Below, in pieces: positions 1,560 through 9,741 of a stretch of DNA of 24,000 nt. Below the pieces are notes generated by a model. The model saw only the letters and a program-made list of their open reading frames with translations, did not search any database and was not told the origin of the DNA. Every line of letters starts with the position of its first letter. The first letter of the stretch is position 1. This DNA comes from Algihabitans sp. (lineage in GTDB: Bacteria; Pseudomonadota; Alphaproteobacteria; Kiloniellales; DSM-21159), in contig CBDDTF010000003.1 in assembly GCA_965233705.1 (NCBI GenBank), positions 1,662,997 to 1,686,996 of the forward strand. The letters run 5' to 3'. The position numbers and the translations under genes were made by a program.

Positions 1560-2285
1560 TCATTGGGCAAGCCATCTTCCATATGCCTGAATATCGATCA
1601 TGGGAACGGTCCCGCTGAATTGAAGCTGAGAAATCAGATTGAAAAGAAATGCCGTTGCAGGCTTGCCGCCATCCTCGAAGACGTAATCGTTGCTCTGCTC
1701 GTCAAACCGGAAAAGCCCATGAGCTGCCACACACCCCATGTTCAACTTGCCATCGCCTCCATCCGCAGCCAGCGCACTTCGCAGCGCCTCGCCTAAGGGC
1801 GGATTCCAATCACTCTCGAACGTGAGGATGCCGCCGAGGATCGGGATTAGGGGCTTTGGGTCGTAGACACCACCTGCATGGGGGATAGGAAGGCTGGTTC
1901 GATGCAGCCGTCGGACGCTTGCCGCCTTTTCCTGGGCGTATTTGACGTAGTCGCCGTTTATGGATTGTTTGGCCTCGAAGACCGCGTAGACGCTTTCCGC
2001 CGGTATCACCTTTTCACCTTCAAAATTGAATATGAAAGGCGAGTACTGACGGTCAAAAATCACAACATCTATCTGCTGACTGAAGGTGCCCTGACTGTCA
2101 ACGACGTGCGCCTTTTCAGCTTGGTAGCGGGCAGGTAGGTAGTCCTGAAAGAGCTTCAGCCAAATCTTCTCACTTGCATCCCCCTTCGTTCCGGGGTGGC
2201 CAAAGCTCTGCCGTGCCGTTTGCAGACGGCTTTGTATGTCCTGATGGAGGCTTTCCAGGACCTTGGCTAGCGACCATGTGGTCAC
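1560..2285 (-). CDS. nucC: NucC-like CBASS effector endonuclease (restriction-endonuclease fold)
   Basis: 241 aa with a PD-(D/E)xK-type signature I-D73-x30-E104-A-K106 (QQIDVVIFD...VYAVFEAKQ). It is the last gene of the CD-NTase/HORMA/TRIP13 operon. Its GTG start overlaps the upstream stop (GTGA). Confidence 0.8.
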   Translation of the reverse strand: MTTWSLAKVLESLHQDIQSRLQTARQSFGHPGTKGDASEKIWLKLFQDYLPARYQAEKAHVVDSQGTFSQQIDVVIFDRQYSPFIFNFEGEKVIPAESVYAVFEAKQSINGDYVKYAQEKAASVRRLHRTSLPIPHAGGVYDPKPLIPILGGILTFESDWNPPLGEALRSALAADGGDGKLNMGCVAAHGLFRFDEQSNDYVFEDGGKPATAFLFNLISQLQFSGTVPMIDIQAYGRWLAQ

Positions 2286-3223
2286 GACACGCCCTCCCGA
2301 AACGGCGGAGTCGGTTCCATCCCTCGGGCAATCTCGATTGCCCGCTTCGGATCGATCGGTTTGTTTGGATACGCATCCAGGACGAGCGTCGGCAGCAACC
2401 GTTGCGTAAGGTCGGAGAATGTAAAGCCGTATGCACGACCATTCATCTGGCCAGTGGCGGCAACCAGTTGATTCAGGTCTGGCTGCGAGAAGCCAAGCTC
2501 ACCCAGAGAGCGCTGAAGCACTGACAGGCGTTGCACTTCATTGGGGCGACTAAAGGCCATGATGTCGGCCGCGCGCCGCTTGACTGCGGGGTCCATTGCC
2601 CCGAGGCGGTTAGAGCACATGATGATGGCAGCAGGCACGCGTGCGTTGGCGATCGTGTCAATTCCGCGGATGAATGCGTTAACGCCCGCGCGATCTTCAT
2701 GGTGCATCTGCGCGGCCTCACGGGACTGAGCCAGCGCATCTGCTTCGTCCACCAAAAGAATTAGCCCGCCACGGGCCTTGCCCGTACTGCCTTTTAGCTT
2801 CATGGCCTGGGACAGCGTGTAATCGAAGGCGGCCGAGAGAAGTTGTGTCATTTCGCCAACACGACCCTGCCCTCTACTTGACAGGCTCAGCGGCAACAAG
2901 GTGATGTCAATGTCTTCTTGCCGTGCGACAGCATCACCGATCGTTTCAGCAAGTTCGGTTTTCCCCGACCCCACGTCGCCGGCGAGCACGACAAGAGGCG
3001 GGCGCCTCAGGACTGTATCCATAATGACAGTCCGTCCAGCGTGATGCTTCCGCGCCCATGCCTCCAATCCGGCGGGGTTTACGAGCAGCCCAAGGGCCTT
3101 CGTCAGGCGCGTTTTGTGATCGTCCAAGCCGACAAGCTGAGCCAGACGCTCCCGAGCGGAAACATCAGGATAGCTGATGCGCCGGTCGAACAACTCATCG
3201 ACGTTGACGGTACTGTTCATCAC
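2282..3223 (-). CDS. cap6: TRIP13/Pch2-like AAA+ ATPase (CBASS Cap6)
   Basis: Walker A LAGDVGSGKTE and Walker B LILLVDEADAL. About 313 aa, located between the HORMA-size gene and the nuclease. The start (GTG 3223 or ATG 3220) overlaps the upstream stop. Confidence 0.85.
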   Translation of the reverse strand: MMNSTVNVDELFDRRISYPDVSARERLAQLVGLDDHKTRLTKALGLLVNPAGLEAWARKHHAGRTVIMDTVLRRPPLVVLAGDVGSGKTELAETIGDAVARQEDIDITLLPLSLSSRGQGRVGEMTQLLSAAFDYTLSQAMKLKGSTGKARGGLILLVDEADALAQSREAAQMHHEDRAGVNAFIRGIDTIANARVPAAIIMCSNRLGAMDPAVKRRAADIMAFSRPNEVQRLSVLQRSLGELGFSQPDLNQLVAATGQMNGRAYGFTFSDLTQRLLPTLVLDAYPNKPIDPKRAIEIARGMEPTPPFREGVS

Positions 3224-3735
3224 CAGCTCCTCACGGTAGCCCGGTCGAGGGCTCTGCCGCCCGCCGAATAGGTCTTATCGGAAACCAGATATCCATTGAT
3301 GCCCGGTTCCGGTGCGCCGTTTCGTTGAAGAGGCAAGGTTCGTTTGAAGGCCTCCCGTTCGTCGGAAGTCAGCGCATCCCATGCGGCGCTATAGGTGAGA
3401 TAGCTGTAGAACGAGGCGCCGGAAGTATCGGCATTGGGGGAGACACGGCCGGGATCATCATCATTGGCCGCCATACCCGCCAAATCCTTCGCAGTGTACC
3501 GGACCGTGGGGGCAATCCAGTCGCCATTGCGGCGAAAGCCGTAAGTGACGGTTCCCAGATACCCTGCTTTCAACAGGTCTATGACCTCGGCTTCGTACTC
3601 GGCGATGTCGGCATCGCTCGGTGCGCCATAGAAGCGCTGCATCCGCTTCAGGTCGGCCGCCACCTTCGCCGCCATGTGTCTGGCGTGCGTAACGGTGAAG
3701 GTCGTGGTTTCGGAGATGGTGTAGCTATAGCTCAT
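3220..3735 (-). CDS. cap7: Bacterial HORMA-domain protein (CBASS Cap7), assigned by size and position
   Basis: 171 aa, sandwiched between the CD-NTase and the TRIP13-like ATPase exactly as in type III CBASS. I can read no catalytic motifs. The assignment is contextual, not from a recognised sequence signature. Confidence 0.65.
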   Translation of the reverse strand: MSYSYTISETTTFTVTHARHMAAKVAADLKRMQRFYGAPSDADIAEYEAEVIDLLKAGYLGTVTYGFRRNGDWIAPTVRYTAKDLAGMAANDDDPGRVSPNADTSGASFYSYLTYSAAWDALTSDEREAFKRTLPLQRNGAPEPGINGYLVSDKTYSAGGRALDRATVRSW

Positions 3736-3743
3736 GGCTGCTC

Positions 3744-4709
3744 TCAGACCTGAAAAGACGGACCGAACACTTTCTGCCAGTAGCGGACGGTCTCTTGTTT
3801 GGTGGGTGCCGCAAGCGCCGCATCGATCGCATCGCCGGCGTCCAGCGCCGCCTCAAAAATCGCTTCCGCTTGGGCTTGGGTGTAGAGCCGGCTGACGTTG
3901 TTGTCGGCGTTCACCGGATCGATGATCTGTACGGGCTCTGTGAAGGTTCCGACTGCTGACTGAGGATAATAGTCGTTGAAGATTATTCGCTCCCGCAGGC
4001 CGGTCTGGCCGAGGTAGGTGAAGAAGTGCTGCAACGCCTCCGGGTAATCGGAAAAATCCAACCCCTCGTCCGCCAGGTGGGACAGAATCATTTCGACCAT
4101 GAAGGATTTGAAGCGGAAGCCATCATTCTCACGCTTCATATTCCTCGCCCAGAACTTCACAAGACGGACAACTTGGGCGAAATGGGTTTCCTGTGCCTGC
4201 TTGCGCTTGCGGGTGAATTCGAGGTGCAGGGGGATGCTGGTCTTGAGAAACGATCCGTCGTCCTGACTGACCAGGTTCCCGAACCACTGTGGGTCGCCAT
4301 CGTAGAGGATGGGAACGACATCTACGTCCAGTCCCGAGCCGCGAAACGAGACGGTCACACTGTAGGTCTGCGGCTTCACCTGATCGGGGCTGAAGTTGGG
4401 AAACGCCTTGCGAAGCCGCTCCGCGAGGTACTCCAACAGCGCAGCGATATCGGCGGGCGCGTCGGCGCCGCTGATGTAGCAGCCCACATCGATGTCGTTG
4501 AGGGAACGCAGCGCAGTGCCCTTCGCCAAGCTGCCCGAGAGGAGCATCTTCTTGAGGGTGAAATCCGGATGCTCGCTCAGATAGCCTTCCAGGCGCTCGC
4601 GCAGACGGCGGGCCTGGGCACGGTACTCGTCGGCCTTGTCCTTGGGCAGATTCACCCGCTCCTGCGCAAAGCGAGCGATGTCACTATGGTCTACATGTTG
4701 CCGTCCCAC
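3744..4709 (-). CDS. cdnC: cGAS/DncV-like nucleotidyltransferase (CD-NTase), CdnC-like by operon type
   Basis: Pol-beta NTase signature G59-S60 (LLSGSLAKGT), D72-x-D74 (NDIDVG) and a third acidic cluster GLDVDVVP. The GTG start at 4709 is preceded by GGAGG 7 nt upstream. It is the first gene of the four-gene operon. Confidence 0.85.
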   Translation of the reverse strand: MGRQHVDHSDIARFAQERVNLPKDKADEYRAQARRLRERLEGYLSEHPDFTLKKMLLSGSLAKGTALRSLNDIDVGCYISGADAPADIAALLEYLAERLRKAFPNFSPDQVKPQTYSVTVSFRGSGLDVDVVPILYDGDPQWFGNLVSQDDGSFLKTSIPLHLEFTRKRKQAQETHFAQVVRLVKFWARNMKRENDGFRFKSFMVEMILSHLADEGLDFSDYPEALQHFFTYLGQTGLRERIIFNDYYPQSAVGTFTEPVQIIDPVNADNNVSRLYTQAQAEAIFEAALDAGDAIDAALAAPTKQETVRYWQKVFGPSFQV

Positions 4710-4739
4710 TGACCGGCCTCCGGCTGAATTTCTCTAGAT

Positions 4740-4755
4740 GTGGCCACTAGGCCAC
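4740..4755. promoter_or_regulatory. 16-bp palindrome GTGGCC-acta-GGCCAC in the CBASS 5' leader
   Basis: Perfect 6-bp arms with a 4-nt spacer, between the candidate CBASS promoter and the cdn start codon. Function unknown. Confidence 0.35.
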
Positions 4756-4775
4756 CTTGGCACGCAGCATGATGT

Positions 4776-4840
4776 ATGTTCGAATATCGGACTGTCAAGG
4801 GAAGAATTTGACATTCGATGTTCGATGCCCCATATTTATG
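4776..4840. promoter_or_regulatory. Back-to-back divergent sigma70-like promoters with shared ATGTTCGA operator-like motifs
   Basis: A TTGACA lies on the minus strand (4793-4798) and another on the plus strand (4808-4813), 9 bp apart. The plus promoter is TTGACA-N17-CATATT with a tandem TTCGATG-TTCGATG (4814-4827) in its spacer. The minus promoter spacer holds the near-palindrome ATGTTCGAATAT (4776-4787). The 8-mer ATGTTCGA occurs in both spacers (4776-4783, 4818-4825). Confidence 0.5.
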
Positions 4841-4889
4841 TGTAAGAGGAGAGAGATAGGCTCTCTCCCGCGAAGGAGGAGGCAGCACC

Positions 4890-6128
4890 ATGGACCCGGT
4901 TGAGCTTGGACGCCGCTTGCGCATTGCTCGTGAGGCACGGGGCCTGAGCCAGCAGGCCGCGGCGGACGCCATTGGCGTGCCCCGGACGGCGATTACCCAG
5001 ATGGAATCGGGGAATCGCGCTGTCTCGACTCTGGAGCTGACCAAGCTCGCAGAGCTTTACCGCCGCCCGGTGACCTATTTCTTTGAGGAAGCCGCTCCGG
5101 CGGAAGAAGAGGATGTGCTGGTCGCGCTACATCGCGTTGCCCCGGGTCTGGAGCAGGATTCGGCAGTCCGTGATCAGGTGGATCGTTGCCTGAGCCTATG
5201 CCGTGACGGTGTCGTCCTGGAAACCGTACTGGGGCTCGCACCCCGGTCCGGCCCTCCGGCGTACGAGCTGCGCGTTCCTCGTACCGTCGGCGAAGCTATC
5301 GTTCAAGGAGAGCAGGTGGCGCAGGAGGAAAGGCGCCGCCTCAGCATTGGCAATGCCCCGATCCCTGACGTATCGGAGCTGATTGGCGCGCAGGGTATTT
5401 GGGCATCCGGCCTTGCGCTCCCAAATCACATGTCCGGCCTTTTTATGCGCCACCCTTCGATTGGGTTGGCAATCATTGTAAACGCGTCCCACCCGCGTGG
5501 GCGAAAGAGGTTTTCATACGCTCATGAATATGCCCACTCTCTCATGGATCGTGACCACAATATAACGATTTCAAGTACCGATAATTCTGCGGAACTTGTG
5601 GAGAAGCGTGCGAATGCTTTTGCGGCATCTTTCCTCATGCCGAGAGACGGCGTGTATGAGGTTCTGAGAAGTCTCGACAAGGGGCTTCCAAGCCGTCAGG
5701 AGCAATCGATCTTTGATGCTGCCAGCGGTGGGCAAATTGAAGCTGAAGCTCGTTCGGCACCTCGCTCTCAGCGCATTACCTACAAAGATGTAGCGATCGT
5801 AGCGCATCATTTCGGTGTGAGCTATCAGGCCGCCCTCTACAGACTGAAAAGCCTCAAGCATGTTTCTCAGCCGGAATCCGTTGAGCTCCTGGAGCATGAG
5901 GATTTCGGCCGACAGTATCTCAATGCACTGAGCATGTTCGGTGATGTTGGAGAGCAAGAGCAGCGGCAATACTGGGATCGTGAGCTGCGCAGTGAAATTG
6001 CGCACCTTGCGATTGAAGCCTATCGGCGCGAGGAAATTTCCCGCGGGCGCCTACTGGAGCTTAGCAAGAGCCTCGACATTCCGGGAGAAACCCTCCTTGA
6101 ACTAGCCGAAGTGGCCCGCGGGGAGTGA
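4890..6128 (+). CDS. Fused XRE-family HTH + ImmA/IrrE (COG2856) zinc metallopeptidase
   Basis: The N-terminus LGRRLRIAREARGLSQQAAADAIGVPRTAITQMESGNRAVSTLELTKLAELY is a classic Cro/C1 HTH. HEYAH (aa 212-216, nt 5523-5537) in SYAHEYAHSLMD, followed by ANAFAASFLMP, is the ImmA/IrrE signature. Strong SD: AGGAGGAGG. Confidence 0.85.
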   Translation: MDPVELGRRLRIAREARGLSQQAAADAIGVPRTAITQMESGNRAVSTLELTKLAELYRRPVTYFFEEAAPAEEEDVLVALHRVAPGLEQDSAVRDQVDRCLSLCRDGVVLETVLGLAPRSGPPAYELRVPRTVGEAIVQGEQVAQEERRRLSIGNAPIPDVSELIGAQGIWASGLALPNHMSGLFMRHPSIGLAIIVNASHPRGRKRFSYAHEYAHSLMDRDHNITISSTDNSAELVEKRANAFAASFLMPRDGVYEVLRSLDKGLPSRQEQSIFDAASGGQIEAEARSAPRSQRITYKDVAIVAHHFGVSYQAALYRLKSLKHVSQPESVELLEHEDFGRQYLNALSMFGDVGEQEQRQYWDRELRSEIAHLAIEAYRREEISRGRLLELSKSLDIPGETLLELAEVARGE

Positions 6129-6137
6129 ACCAAAGGC

Positions 6138-6656
6138 ATGATCCGTGCGAGCCCGTCAATCATCGTTTCGGATACGTCCGTTCTTGTGAACTTTCTCCGA
6201 ATCAACCGCATGGACCTCATCGCTGGCTACTCTCATGACTTCATCGTTACGGATCACGTCGCCGCGGAAATCACCGACCATTACCCTGACCAACAAGCAC
6301 GCTTTGCCGCGGCCCAGGCAGCAGGAATGCTCCAACAGGTGAGTATCACAGATCCGGCGGAAGTCGCGTTGTTTGGAAGTCTCGCCGCTTCCGGTCGTCT
6401 GGGTGCGGGCGAATGTTCCGCGATTGCACTTGCCTCACACCAAGGGCACATCCTGGCGATCGATGACCGCCGCGCATCAAACCATGCGCGCCGTGTCAGC
6501 CGGCATCTCCAGATTCTGACAACCCAGGACCTGATGGTTTCTATGATCGGTGAAAACCTGTTGGACGTGCCGCAAGCTGATACCATCAAGGACGAATGGG
6601 CGAGCAATCATCGTTTCCGCCTTACAATTCAAAGCTTTGCGGACCTCGTCTCGTGA
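6138..6656 (+). CDS. PIN-domain (DUF3368-like) nuclease
   Basis: It has the N-terminal IIVSDTS acidic motif, then GAGECSAIALA and LAIDDRRA, the usual PIN acidic quartet arrangement. It starts 9 nt after the HTH-peptidase stop. Confidence 0.7.
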   Translation: MIRASPSIIVSDTSVLVNFLRINRMDLIAGYSHDFIVTDHVAAEITDHYPDQQARFAAAQAAGMLQQVSITDPAEVALFGSLAASGRLGAGECSAIALASHQGHILAIDDRRASNHARRVSRHLQILTTQDLMVSMIGENLLDVPQADTIKDEWASNHRFRLTIQSFADLVS

Positions 6657-6744
6657 AGGATGCTCAATATCTTCCCCGGGACAGTGTGCATGGAAAAATA
6701 GGGGCCGTCGAAACGACACAAGCACGGATGACGCCGAGGCAGGT

Positions 6745-9741
6745 TTAGGTTCCCGCTTCTTCCCGCACCTCCCGCAGCGCCCGATTGAAGAAGTGGCGGA
6801 TCGCTTGCTCGCGGGCTTGCGGATCGCTCAGCACGATGTTCTTCATCTCGTTGTCGCGCTGGAACATCTTGATGGCGCCCTTGAAGAACGCCTGACTGAA
6901 GGCGGAGAAGACCACGTCCGGCGGGTTGTTCCGCAGCATTTCTGTCAGGTCTTCGTCCATGATCTCGCGGTTGACCTGCTCGAAGCGGATAAAGTCCTCG
7001 CGCGAGAACTCCGTGCCGTGGCGGTCATTGAACGCCTTGATGATCTCGGAGAGCGAACGCTCTTCCTCTTCTGTGTAGGGCTTAGCGGCGAATTCGCTGA
7101 TGGGCTTGAGCTCTTCTGTGTCGCCGGCCGCAAGTGATGCTGACCCCTGCTCCTTCTGCTCGACACGAAACGCCTGAAGGCGGAGCATCTCCTCGGTAAT
7201 CTCGACATCGGGCGGTATTTCCCGGTTCGGCAGCAACCGCGACAGCCAGGCGGCGTAGGAATAGAGCTTTTCAAGCCCGGTATCGCCAAGCCGGATGACC
7301 TGCGCCACGAAACTGTAGAAGCGCATGTAGCTCTTCACCAGTTGGCGGAACTCTTCCTGCCGCCCCTCGTCATCCTCGGCCTCGAAACGGGCCACGGCCT
7401 GCCGTACCAGCCCTTCTAATCGGGCGCGGTCATGGGTGTCGAGCGCACCCTTGTAGAAGGTCTCGGCGAAGCGATCGATTTCGCCCTGGTCGAGGATGCC
7501 GAAGGTTTTGAGGCGTGCTTCCAACTCGTAAATCTGGTTGGGGTCGGAGTTTGCCTCCAGCCCTGTCACCTCAAAGAACGGCTTGAAGGCGTTCTGGATA
7601 TCCTCTGTGGTGTTCTGGAAGTCGAGGACGTAGGTGCGATCCTTGCCCGGATAGGTACGATTGAGGCGCGAGAGCGTCTGAACGGCCTGAAGGCCGGCGA
7701 GCTTCCGGTCCACATACATCGCGCACAGCTTCGGCTGGTCGAAGCCCGTCTGGTACTTCTCGGCGACAATCAGCACCTGATAGGCATCCGAATCGAAGCG
7801 GCGCGGAAGCTCGGTCTCGGCGAAGCCGTTCAGTTCGGCTTCAGTGTACGTTTGCCCGTCCACCTCCAGGTCGCCCGAAAACGCGACCAGCGGCTTCACA
7901 TCGGTGTAGCCATTGGCCTTGATGTAGTCGCGAACGCCAAAGTAGTAGCGAAGCGCATGCTCGCGGCTGCCTGTGACAATCATAGCCTTGGCGCGGCCGT
8001 CCAACTCGTCCATCACATGGCGGCGGAAGTGCTCGACGATCACTTCAACCTTCTGGCCGATGGCGGTCGGATGGAGGGAGGCGAAGCGTGCCACGCGACG
8101 CTGGGCGCGGCGGGTGTTCAGCTCGGGGTCGTCCTCGATGGCCTTTTCGAGCTGGTAGTAGGCTTTGTAGGTCATGTAATTCTGGAGCACGTCCAGAATG
8201 AAGCCTTCCTCGATGGCCTGGCGCATCGAGTAGAGGTGGAAAGGCTGCGGCAGCCCGTCCGCCCCCTTCGTCCCGAACCGCTCCAGCGTCACGTTGCGAG
8301 GCGTTGCGGTGAAGGCGAAATAGCTGATGTTCGGCTGCGGCCCGCGGGCTTTCTGATAGTCGGCAATCAGATCCTCGATATCGCGGCCGTCCTCGGTCTC
8401 GTCGCGCGTCAGCGCATCGCTCATGGCCTGCGCGCTCTTGCCGGACTGACTGCCATGGGCCTCGTCGATGATGACGGCAAAGGTGCGGGTCCCCTGGCCG
8501 GACAACTCCTTCAGGTGGTCGGTCGAGAACTTCTGGATGGTGGTGATGACGATGCGTGCACCGGCCTCCAGAGCCGCCTTCAACTGGCGCGAGGTGCCGT
8601 CGATTTTCTTCACCACGCCCTTGGTCTGCTCGAACTGCGCCACCGTGTTCTGGAGCTGGCGGTCGAGCACAACGCGGTCGGTAACGATGACGGCCGAATC
8701 GAAGATCGGCCTGTCGGCATCGTCATGCAGATTGGTGATCTGATGCGCCGTCCAGCCAATGGTATTGGACTTGCCGGAGCCAGCCGAGTGCTGGATCAGG
8801 TAGTTATGGCCTGGGCCGAAGCCGCGGGCGTGCATCATCAGCTTGCGCACCGCGTCGAGCTGTTGGAAGCGCGGGAAGATCAAGGTCTCCCGAACTTCGG
8901 TCGAACCGCTTGCCGTCGGCGTCTCCTGCCGCTCCAGATGGAGGAAGCGTCCGATGACGTCGAGCAACACGTCCCGCGACAACACTGCCTTGCCTTCGGG
9001 CTGGTCGGCATAGAGGTAGGCCACACGGAAGTCGCCGGCGACGTCGGGATTTCCGGCGCCGCCGTCCCGCCCGCGATTGAACGGCAGAAACCGTGTCTTG
9101 CCGTTCTGGAGGCGCGTCGTCATCGAGATATTGTCCTCGTCCATCGCGAAATGGACGAGCGCCCCGCGCTTGAAGGTCAGGAGAGGCTCACCGGCCGGAG
9201 AACGGTCGTAACGGTACTGCTTCTCGGCGTGCCGGAAGGTAGAGCCGGTCAGGAGGTTCTTCAGCTCCGCCGTTGCCACCGGCAGGCCGTTGACAAACAA
9301 CGCCACGTCAATGGCGTTCTCCGAGCGCTGACTGTAGCGGAGCTGACGGATGATTGAGAGGATGTTGGCCTCATAGAGCCGAACCAACTCGGCGTTCAAC
9401 CCGGACGCGGGCTTGAAGAAGCAAAGCGTCAGCTTGATGTTGGGGATGAGCTTCAGCCCCTGCCGCAGTACGTCGAGCGTGCCGCGCGTCTTCAGCGCCT
9501 TCTCAAGCTGCTTGAAAAATTCGGCTTCGGCGGCGGTGGTGTACTGCGCCTCCAGCTTCCGCCACTCGTCAGGTTGCGTCTCCTTGACGAAGCGAAGGAC
9601 AAGCCCGCGGTCCATGGCAAGGGCGCGGTCATACTCGTCCGGCTGTCGGGCGACATAGCCCTGTGAGGCCATCAGATGGTCCACCATGTGCTGTTCAAGC
9701 ACGATCTCTTGGTGCGCGTTCTGGGCGGCGTGCTTTGTCAT
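6745..9741 (-). CDS. hsdR: Type I restriction enzyme R subunit (helicase-nuclease)
   Basis: 998 aa with Walker A HSAGSGKSNT and a DEAH box (IIDEAHGSQSG). It is the last gene of the hsdM-hsdS operon, with an ATGA overlap with the upstream gene. Confidence 0.93.
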   Translation of the reverse strand: MTKHAAQNAHQEIVLEQHMVDHLMASQGYVARQPDEYDRALAMDRGLVLRFVKETQPDEWRKLEAQYTTAAEAEFFKQLEKALKTRGTLDVLRQGLKLIPNIKLTLCFFKPASGLNAELVRLYEANILSIIRQLRYSQRSENAIDVALFVNGLPVATAELKNLLTGSTFRHAEKQYRYDRSPAGEPLLTFKRGALVHFAMDEDNISMTTRLQNGKTRFLPFNRGRDGGAGNPDVAGDFRVAYLYADQPEGKAVLSRDVLLDVIGRFLHLERQETPTASGSTEVRETLIFPRFQQLDAVRKLMMHARGFGPGHNYLIQHSAGSGKSNTIGWTAHQITNLHDDADRPIFDSAVIVTDRVVLDRQLQNTVAQFEQTKGVVKKIDGTSRQLKAALEAGARIVITTIQKFSTDHLKELSGQGTRTFAVIIDEAHGSQSGKSAQAMSDALTRDETEDGRDIEDLIADYQKARGPQPNISYFAFTATPRNVTLERFGTKGADGLPQPFHLYSMRQAIEEGFILDVLQNYMTYKAYYQLEKAIEDDPELNTRRAQRRVARFASLHPTAIGQKVEVIVEHFRRHVMDELDGRAKAMIVTGSREHALRYYFGVRDYIKANGYTDVKPLVAFSGDLEVDGQTYTEAELNGFAETELPRRFDSDAYQVLIVAEKYQTGFDQPKLCAMYVDRKLAGLQAVQTLSRLNRTYPGKDRTYVLDFQNTTEDIQNAFKPFFEVTGLEANSDPNQIYELEARLKTFGILDQGEIDRFAETFYKGALDTHDRARLEGLVRQAVARFEAEDDEGRQEEFRQLVKSYMRFYSFVAQVIRLGDTGLEKLYSYAAWLSRLLPNREIPPDVEITEEMLRLQAFRVEQKEQGSASLAAGDTEELKPISEFAAKPYTEEEERSLSEIIKAFNDRHGTEFSREDFIRFEQVNREIMDEDLTEMLRNNPPDVVFSAFSQAFFKGAIKMFQRDNEMKNIVLSDPQAREQAIRHFFNRALREVREEAGT

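Follow-up and report, generated by a model that had tools for sequence, protein, structure and literature searches.

A gene for a PIN-type nuclease lying next to an antiviral operon raises the question of whether it belongs to that operon, to the regulator gene that precedes it, or to both. The case analysed here comes from a 24,000-nucleotide stretch of DNA from Algihabitans sp. (GenBank assembly GCA_965233705.1, contig CBDDTF010000003.1, positions 1,662,997 to 1,686,996 of the forward strand; the whole stretch is called the window below), in which a 172-aa PIN gene follows a gene for a 412-aa protein that fuses a helix-turn-helix (HTH) domain to a zinc peptidase. Both genes diverge from a type III cyclic-oligonucleotide-based antiphage signaling system (CBASS). 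An earlier note on this DNA had offered two options: an independent toxin-antitoxin module, or one sensor with two outputs, PIN RNase activity and CBASS transcription. Our analysis suggests, with a probability that we put at roughly 0.6, that the PIN protein is the toxin of a type II cassette of the VapBC52-like (Rosmer-like) kind that sits in the regulator slot of CBASS. Six observations carry this reading: the PIN fold, the conserved acidic residues, the operon layout, the obligate co-occurrence of the two genes, the occupancy of the regulator slot and the layout of promoters and operator-like motifs.

The PIN gene had been placed exactly by the earlier note: the TGA of the HTH-peptidase open reading frame (ORF) occupies positions 6126-6128 and the ATG of the PIN gene is at 6138, which leaves a gap of exactly 9 nucleotides. 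Pfam alone is a weak basis for calling the domain; the match to PF01850 spans profile positions 1-118 of 120 at E=0.0029, and its 18.7 bits do not reach the gathering cut-off of 23.6 bits. The predicted fold outweighs this and settles the assignment. The AlphaFold2 model, built on 28 homologues, has a mean predicted local distance difference test score (pLDDT) of 93.6 and a predicted template modeling score (pTM) of 0.88, and with it Foldseek finds 25 PDB matches at E<=0.001, nearly all of them VapC/PIN proteins, with probability 1.00. Among them are VapC4 (5h4g), Shigella VapC (3tnd), VapCs of Mycobacterium tuberculosis and, at TMt 0.72, 2mdt (SSO1118), which is listed for COG2405/DUF3368 as its representative structure (Matelska et al. 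2017, PMC5499597). Six PADLOC models of PDC-S70 (PIN) also match, the best at 3.5e-14. A precomputed PF11848.14 (DUF3368) label is carried by all 120 homologues among the matches listed; our own hmmscan of the PIN protein at E<=10 did not return PF11848. DUF4411 was not matched either (Pfam, E<=10), and no NCBIfam family was found for the protein.

The active site appears to be intact. Across the 28 homologues (61-87% identity), D12 is at least 90% conserved, and E44, E92 of the GE motif and D109 and D110 of the IDD motif are invariant, so that the acidic residues singled out by the earlier note (D12, the GE glutamate and the IDD aspartate) are indeed conserved; the fourth canonical PIN acidic position (D131) is variable. 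In the model D12 follows strand 1, E44 lies in the helix that follows strand 2, and D109/D110 come after the strand at 105-107. Since the conserved acidic residues thus occupy the PIN catalytic places in the model, the protein looks catalytically competent. The rest of the model is a bare PIN fold with short C-terminal helices, and family scans of the protein revealed no cyclic-nucleotide receptor domain such as SAVED.

The 412-aa partner combines features of a repressor and of an antitoxin. An Xre-HTH covers approximately residues 1-65 (Pfam HTH_3, 2.7e-13, residues 10-64), and a Peptidase_M78/IrrE domain is matched at 1.2e-16; H212-E213-x-x-H216 and E238 are invariant among the homologues. 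In PADLOC the protein matches 15 RmrA models (best 5e-26, residues 7-260), capP (3e-17) and capH (7e-7), and in NCBIfam only a sub-threshold match to the 'spr1629 family repressor/antitoxin' is found. Its AlphaFold2 model (pLDDT 87.8) is closest in Foldseek to Thauera CapP (7t5t) and then to IrrE/PprI, with an N-terminal domain that resembles controller proteins and the N-terminal domain of CapH. By sequence, the closest solved relative is PDB chain 9vzy_A (E=2.4e-12, residues 10-255), which we take to be VapB52 of M. tuberculosis; L80-H81-R82 of the linker in the 412-aa protein aligns to F-R-R of this chain. Helices 364-410 close the C-terminus of the model, and the last 50 residues are helical and well conserved, as would be expected of a toxin-binding domain. 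The earlier note thus had the class right in describing a DUF3368-like PIN with a fused HTH-peptidase in a toxin-antitoxin-like operon, given the 2mdt fold match and the Xre-HTH and COG2856/M78 domains of the partner. Its description of the module as RosmerTA-style holds for the upstream protein, with its RmrA matches, but not for the PIN protein, which matches PDC-S70 models alone in PADLOC and no RmrT model at E<=0.01. Membership of the toxin in RosmerTA was rejected on this ground.

The strongest indication that the two proteins belong together comes from their co-occurrence. A pattern scan of prokaryote genomes, one for each species, gave 181 PIN relatives, and the best-scoring 80 loci (48-89% identity) were kept; loci are denoted by L and genomes by G below. 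These loci are not independent of one another, their genes were called by a crude longest-ORF rule, and several come from long-read metagenome assemblies. Because of the crude calls, the orientation counts for upstream neighbours beyond the CBASS set are unreliable and were left unused, and frameshifts in L002 (CBASS), L013 and L079 (antitoxin) and L074 (PIN), being possible long-read assembly errors, were not counted as evidence. A full-length homologue of the 412-aa protein lies immediately upstream of the PIN gene, on the same strand, in all 80 loci, and the same is true of all 17 IMG/VR viral contigs that carry a PIN relative. The pair is also present on both plasmids inspected, and no match was found among INPHARED phage genomes. 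In 27 of 69 loci the inferred spacing between the two genes is -4 nt, an overlap, and most of the other loci have a gap of 5-21 nt. The pairwise identities of the two proteins, which average 52% for the PIN protein and 58% for the HTH-peptidase, are correlated (Pearson r=0.85, 70 loci); judged by their sequences, the two are inherited as a unit. On one viral contig (L133:4291-4848) the match to a PIN relative (E=1.4e-55) and the antitoxin gene are on opposite strands.

The reverse search gives a similar picture. A PIN gene is downstream in all 19 viral HTH-peptidase loci with enough downstream DNA and, among 400 sampled genomes of the same class, a PIN relative is downstream in 8 of 10 antitoxin matches; these eight include partners that are only 27-31% identical and a locus in which both cassette genes are truncated (L110). 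One locus has an intact antitoxin homologue (63% identity) and no PIN gene (L109:1468-3144, genome G688); a small convergent ORF of 126 aa and a hydrophobic ORF follow the antitoxin there. This is the only orphan of either kind seen; no PIN gene without an HTH-peptidase was found among the 80 genome loci and 17 viral contigs. An orphan antitoxin is tolerable and an orphan toxin is not, so this asymmetry, which comes from few loci on the reverse side, is what a toxin-antitoxin pair predicts. Taken together with the predicted folds, it makes it likely that the PIN and 412-aa proteins form a toxin-antitoxin pair of the VapBC52-like kind.

The cassette is found across many phyla, in prophages and on conjugative plasmids. 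It is an autonomous module, complete in every case and mobile between phyla, prophages and plasmids; most copies occur without CBASS, and some persist beside CBASS remnants. A distant clade (approximately 55% identity), from Paracoccaceae, Stappiaceae and other alphaproteobacterial families, lies among phage genes (L040, L044, L045, L057, L058, L072 and the IMG/VR loci L089-L105), for example with a tape-measure gene approximately 2 kb downstream, and behaves like a prophage moron.

CBASS genes, called with profiles built from the window's CBASS proteins and clustered neighbours, lie beside the pair in 18 of the 80 loci; the other 62 lack them. Where the link exists, it has a regular form. In 17 of the 18 loci CBASS lies on the upstream side of the pair, and it is divergent wherever whole genes remain, with gaps of approximately 150-180 bp where measured, and at least three CBASS architectures are involved: CD-NTase/HORMA/TRIP13/NucC (L001, L002, L012); an AAA+ gene with a distant CD-NTase (L010, L017); and a CapV patatin with a DncV-like cyclase (L018, L019, L022, L029, L036), with a more distant patatin/cyclase pair in L026 and L037. 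Cap15 is downstream in three loci. In a maximum-likelihood tree of the concatenated pair (70 rows), all CBASS-linked rows fall within one clade with support 100/99; 16 of its 34 rows are linked, and none of the 36 other rows is. In five loci (L009, L025, L027, L028, L033) CBASS is reduced to fragments and the pair is intact. In L002 (2428-5596) the four CBASS genes are each split into two or three frames beside an intact cassette (96% and 89% identity), reflecting either real decay or long-read assembly errors.

The divergent slot also holds other cargo. In L003, the sister of the window's cassette group with an antitoxin that is 84% identical, the slot contains, instead of CBASS, genes for an unknown protein of 187 aa and a Prok-E2_A/ThiF/JAB fusion of 766 aa (2109-5581, minus strand), and the cargo of the cassette switch here appears to be an operon for ubiquitin-like conjugation. 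Of ubiquitin-like operons of this kind, 31% are associated with CapH+CapP (Chambers et al.). Other divergent neighbours include AbiEi, a TIR-domain giant, PDC-M36A, a QueC-like gene, DUF2188 with Abi, and a gene of an unknown family; occasionally the neighbour looks metabolic. On the Sphingopyxis plasmid pSFD01 (L087:3004-3593), a DUF2188 protein and an 'Abi family protein' diverge from the cassette. Conversely, the slot beside CBASS can be filled by a different regulator. Of the two closest CBASS homologues in the 400 sampled genomes, one (L085:2803-4431, minus strand, genome G320), with a CD-NTase that is 77% identical, has in the regulator slot a 310-aa WYL-domain CapW-like gene, and the other has no recognised regulator. 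The CapW-like gene implies that the 412-aa gene fills a position held by a known damage-responsive repressor in the same CBASS lineage. It is followed by a 170-aa DUF6933/PDC-S63 gene, which gives L085, too, a regulator with a small partner beside CBASS.

The region between the divergent genes is organised in a manner consistent with shared control. A consensus scan of positions 4600-6900 finds exactly two sigma-70-like promoter sites, arranged back to back, each agreeing at 10 of 12 positions. Both are upstream of the HTH-peptidase gene, and within the scanned region no promoter-like site is predicted between that gene and the PIN gene. The PIN gene is probably co-transcribed with the 412-aa gene, to judge from this layout, and translational coupling is probable as well. 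The 8-mer ATGTTCGA is common to the spacers of both promoters; the promoter facing CBASS also carries a near-palindrome, ATGTTCGAATAT. A TGTCAA-N9-TTGACA core with flanking GTTCGA-type repeats recurs in approximately 25 related loci, CBASS being present in some and absent in others, and one repressor at the back-to-back site could shut both promoters. The 5' leader of the HTH-peptidase gene contains a perfect 8-bp inverted repeat, GGAGAGAG/CTCTCTCC. At the equivalent place in L001 the repeat reads GGAGAGGG/CCCTCTCC, changed on both arms, and other related loci have unrelated GC-rich hairpin-like repeats at the leader position (read by eye).

The mechanism that we infer, comprising toxicity, neutralisation, sensing of single-stranded DNA (ssDNA), self-cleavage and co-regulation, is drawn from the published work on VapBC52 and CapH/CapP. 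In resting cells, the 412-aa protein would bind and block a PIN dimer, and its HTH would repress the back-to-back promoters at the ATGTTCGA sites. Upon DNA damage or phage replication, ssDNA would switch on the peptidase, which would cut its own linker near L80-H81-R82. Cleavage would free active PIN, leading to RNA or tRNA cleavage and growth arrest, and would derepress both the cassette's own operon and the divergent cargo operon, here type III CBASS. The VapBC52 mechanism with this second consequence, the derepression of a divergent operon, would be the most economical account of the locus. The chances that the 412-aa protein also controls the CBASS promoter seem to us evenly balanced from the promoter layout and the gene neighbourhoods. 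One clade of the cassette resembles, in its sequence context, a regulator module of the CapH/CapP type with a toxin of its own. With regard to the earlier note, its option of an independent module is supported by the partner in 80 of 80 loci and the 62 loci without CBASS, and its option of a shared switch by the upstream CBASS in 17 of 18 linked loci, their confinement to one clade and the presence of ATGTTCGA in both promoter spacers. Both options have support, and they are not exclusive. We propose more tentatively that one VapBC52-like clade may have been recruited as a portable transcriptional switch of CBASS (at least three architectures), E1/E2/JAB and other defence operons, in which one ssDNA-activated, self-cleaving protein would both release PIN and derepress the operon.

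Several observations weigh against the reading of the PIN protein as a VapBC52-like toxin in the regulator slot of CBASS. No PDB chain is related to the PIN protein at E<=10, searching with either the single sequence or the 28-sequence profile, so the PIN subfamily differs from that of VapC52. COG2405 PINs vary in the completeness of their active sites, and 2mdt itself is listed as +/- (Matelska 2017, PMC5499597). In the antitoxin, there is no cysteine between H216 and E238; the published 'cysteine switch', therefore, cannot work as described. The linker motif is not F-R: R82 is invariant, and L80 and H81 are found in 67 and 57 of 70 sequences, respectively. With 62 of 80 loci lacking CBASS, co-regulation is at best optional, and the back-to-back promoter layout is also seen where the divergent neighbour is unknown or metabolic-looking (TauD, GDSL lipase).

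The lack of CBASS in 62 of 80 loci would be natural under the main rival explanation, a stand-alone toxin-antitoxin or addiction cassette that lands in defence islands with no regulatory tie to CBASS, where it would stabilise a mobile element or act as an abortive-infection system of its own. The presence of the cassette in many phyla, in prophages and on conjugative plasmids, the intact pairs beside CBASS fragments or, in L002, beside frameshifted CBASS, and the metabolic genes among its neighbours all fit this explanation. It seems to us rather unlikely in the face of a CBASS that is upstream in 17 of 18 linked loci, divergent where whole genes remain, at gaps of approximately 150-180 bp and in different architectures, and of a linkage limited to one well-supported clade. 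A homologous CBASS has a CapW-like regulator in the equivalent slot, the second promoter faces the cargo and carries the motif of the cassette's own promoter, and the fold of the 412-aa protein is nearest to CapP; these points, too, speak against a cassette without a tie to CBASS.

The PIN protein could also be benign and serve the regulator, for example as a subunit that binds nucleic acid or processes RNA and that aids sensing or trims the transcript of the operon. Its lower conservation relative to the HTH-peptidase (52% versus 58% mean pairwise identity), the variable active sites of COG2405 proteins and the 5' leader hairpin, which could be a processing site, would suit such a role. The invariance of E44, E92, D109 and D110 with D12 at least 90% conserved, the toxin-like asymmetry in which PIN never occurs without the large protein and the reverse does occur, and the characterised analogue VapC52, which is toxic and cleaves tRNA (PMC13273310), make a non-toxic role improbable. 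That the protein is a CBASS-specific second effector, activated by the cyclic oligonucleotide of the CD-NTase, is extremely improbable: that CBASS is a neighbour in the window and in 18 of 80 loci speaks for it, but the bare PIN fold with its short C-terminal helices has no SAVED-like receptor domain in family scans, the PIN gene and the CBASS operon are encoded on opposite strands, 62 loci have the PIN gene but no CBASS, and its invariable partner is the HTH-peptidase and no CBASS gene. The idea of a CBASS-dedicated accessory gene was rejected, 62 of the 80 loci being without CBASS. We retain as the more probable reading a VapBC52-like toxin whose antitoxin occupies the regulator slot.

The coordinates of the cassette, its promoter-like sites and the divergent operon are collected in Table 1. 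A 180-bp gap separates the CD-NTase gene from the HTH-peptidase gene. To the right of the pair are a convergent type I restriction-modification operon and then conjugation genes, and an integrase gene lies on the left side of the CBASS/cassette block, which implies that the block lies within a defence island carried by an integrative or conjugative element.

Table 1. Features of the PIN cassette and the divergent CBASS operon in the window
Feature	Position	Strand	Evidence or remark
PIN-fold putative RNase toxin (COG2405/DUF3368-type, VapC-like), 172 aa	6138..6656	+	ORF, AlphaFold2, Foldseek, PADLOC, conserved acidic residues
Spacer between antitoxin stop and PIN start, 9 nt, no promoter predicted within	6129..6137	+	Sequence
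Putative repressor-antitoxin, fused Xre-HTH + M78/IrrE-type Zn-peptidase + helical C-terminal domain, 412 aa	4890..6128	+	Pfam, PADLOC, PDB, AlphaFold2
Perfect 8-bp inverted repeat in the 5' leader	4848..4868	+	Just before the HTH-peptidase ribosome-binding site
Promoter-like site of the HTH-peptidase/PIN operon, TTGACA-17-CATATT	4808..4836	+	ATGTTCGA at 4818-4825 in spacer
Promoter-like site facing CBASS, TTGACA-18-CATCAT	4769..4798	-	Near-palindrome ATGTTCGAATAT (4776-4787) in spacer
Type III CBASS operon, divergent from the HTH-peptidase/PIN pair	1560..4709	-	Pfam, PADLOC; context and possible co-regulated cargo
CD-NTase	3744-4709	-	Pfam/PADLOC
HORMA	3220-3735	-	Pfam/PADLOC
TRIP13	2282-3223	-	Pfam/PADLOC
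NucC	1560-2285	-	Pfam/PADLOC

In RefSeq, the pair on the two plasmids is named 'XRE family transcriptional regulator' and 'hypothetical protein', the latter being the PIN homologue. Our analysis places this gene in a widespread, phylum-crossing cassette with a plausible and recently published mechanism. If the two-output reading is true, it would join toxin-antitoxin biology with the transcriptional control of abortive-infection immunity, which are usually separate fields, and would explain the nuclease partner of fused CapH-CapP regulators. The practical value is modest, and includes an annotation rule for such pairs beside defence operons.

Several known or predicted systems resemble the cassette. 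The COG2405/DUF3368 PIN was predicted to be co-transcribed with HTH+DUF955 in 'three-component' systems (Matelska et al. 2017, PMC5499597), and NetFlax linked an ImmA/Rosmer antitoxin to PIN-like toxins (2023, PMC10440598). This pairing is exactly that of the window, an HTH-DUF955 fusion upstream of a COG2405 PIN; these studies are predictions only, without a CBASS link, promoter analysis or clade structure. RosmerTA likewise has an antitoxin with an HTH and a Zn-peptidase, and its RmrA models match the window protein; the function of its toxin is unknown in Millman et al. 2022, and one toxin studied by NetFlax is membrane-depolarising (PMC10440598). PDC-S70 is a PADLOC defence candidate, found by guilt-by-embedding and unvalidated, that is defined as a single PIN gene and is mostly archaeal, whereas the window-type PIN is never found alone.

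CapH + CapP share with the window regulator the combination of an HTH repressor and an M78 peptidase and a divergent position on the upstream side of CBASS and other defence operons (Lau et al. 2022, bioRxiv 10.1101/2022.04.27.489752). The same source lists 15 CapH-CapP fusions beside CBASS, a vapC-like gene next to a CapH-CapP fusion beside DISARM, and DUF2188 among the cargo linked to CapH/CapP-like genes, and gives the cysteine-switch loop for only 33% of CapP proteins. Unlike CapH and CapP, the window regulator is a single polypeptide, and it ends in a short helical domain where Thauera CapP, as described there, has a GAF domain. In contrast to the CBASS-linked fusions, for which the parts searched of the text and of Table S1 mention no PIN gene, the window fusion has an obligate one.

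Among characterised systems, VapBC52 of M. tuberculosis comes closest. As reported (PMC13273310, Nucleic Acids Res 2026), it likewise combines a PIN toxin with an antitoxin of approximately 415 aa that has an HTH, an IrrE-type HExxH peptidase and a helical C-terminus, arranged as an N-terminal domain, a middle domain with peptidase plus HTH, and a C-terminal domain of four helices. A single antitoxin molecule uses both its N- and C-terminal domains to bind a dimer of VapC52, ssDNA triggers self-cleavage of the antitoxin at a conserved 'FR' motif in the linker, and this cleavage is proposed to free the toxic, tRNA-cleaving VapC52. The window cassette differs in its PIN, which is of the COG2405/DUF3368 type and has only the fold class in common with VapC52, and in its antitoxin, which lacks the cysteine-switch residue and has L-H-R in the linker instead of F-R. 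It is also arranged back to back with CBASS, whereas the parts read of the VapBC52 paper describe no neighbouring defence operon. What was already known, then, is the pairing, predicted in 2017 (PMC5499597) and by NetFlax (PMC10440598), and the self-cleaving antitoxin mechanism of VapBC52 (PMC13273310). What is new is the toxin-side evidence (the PIN fold, its active site and the absence of lone PIN genes), a link to CBASS that is confined to one clade and comes with swapping of cargo, the persistence of the pair beside decayed CBASS, and the positional equivalence of the 412-aa gene with a CapW-like regulator.

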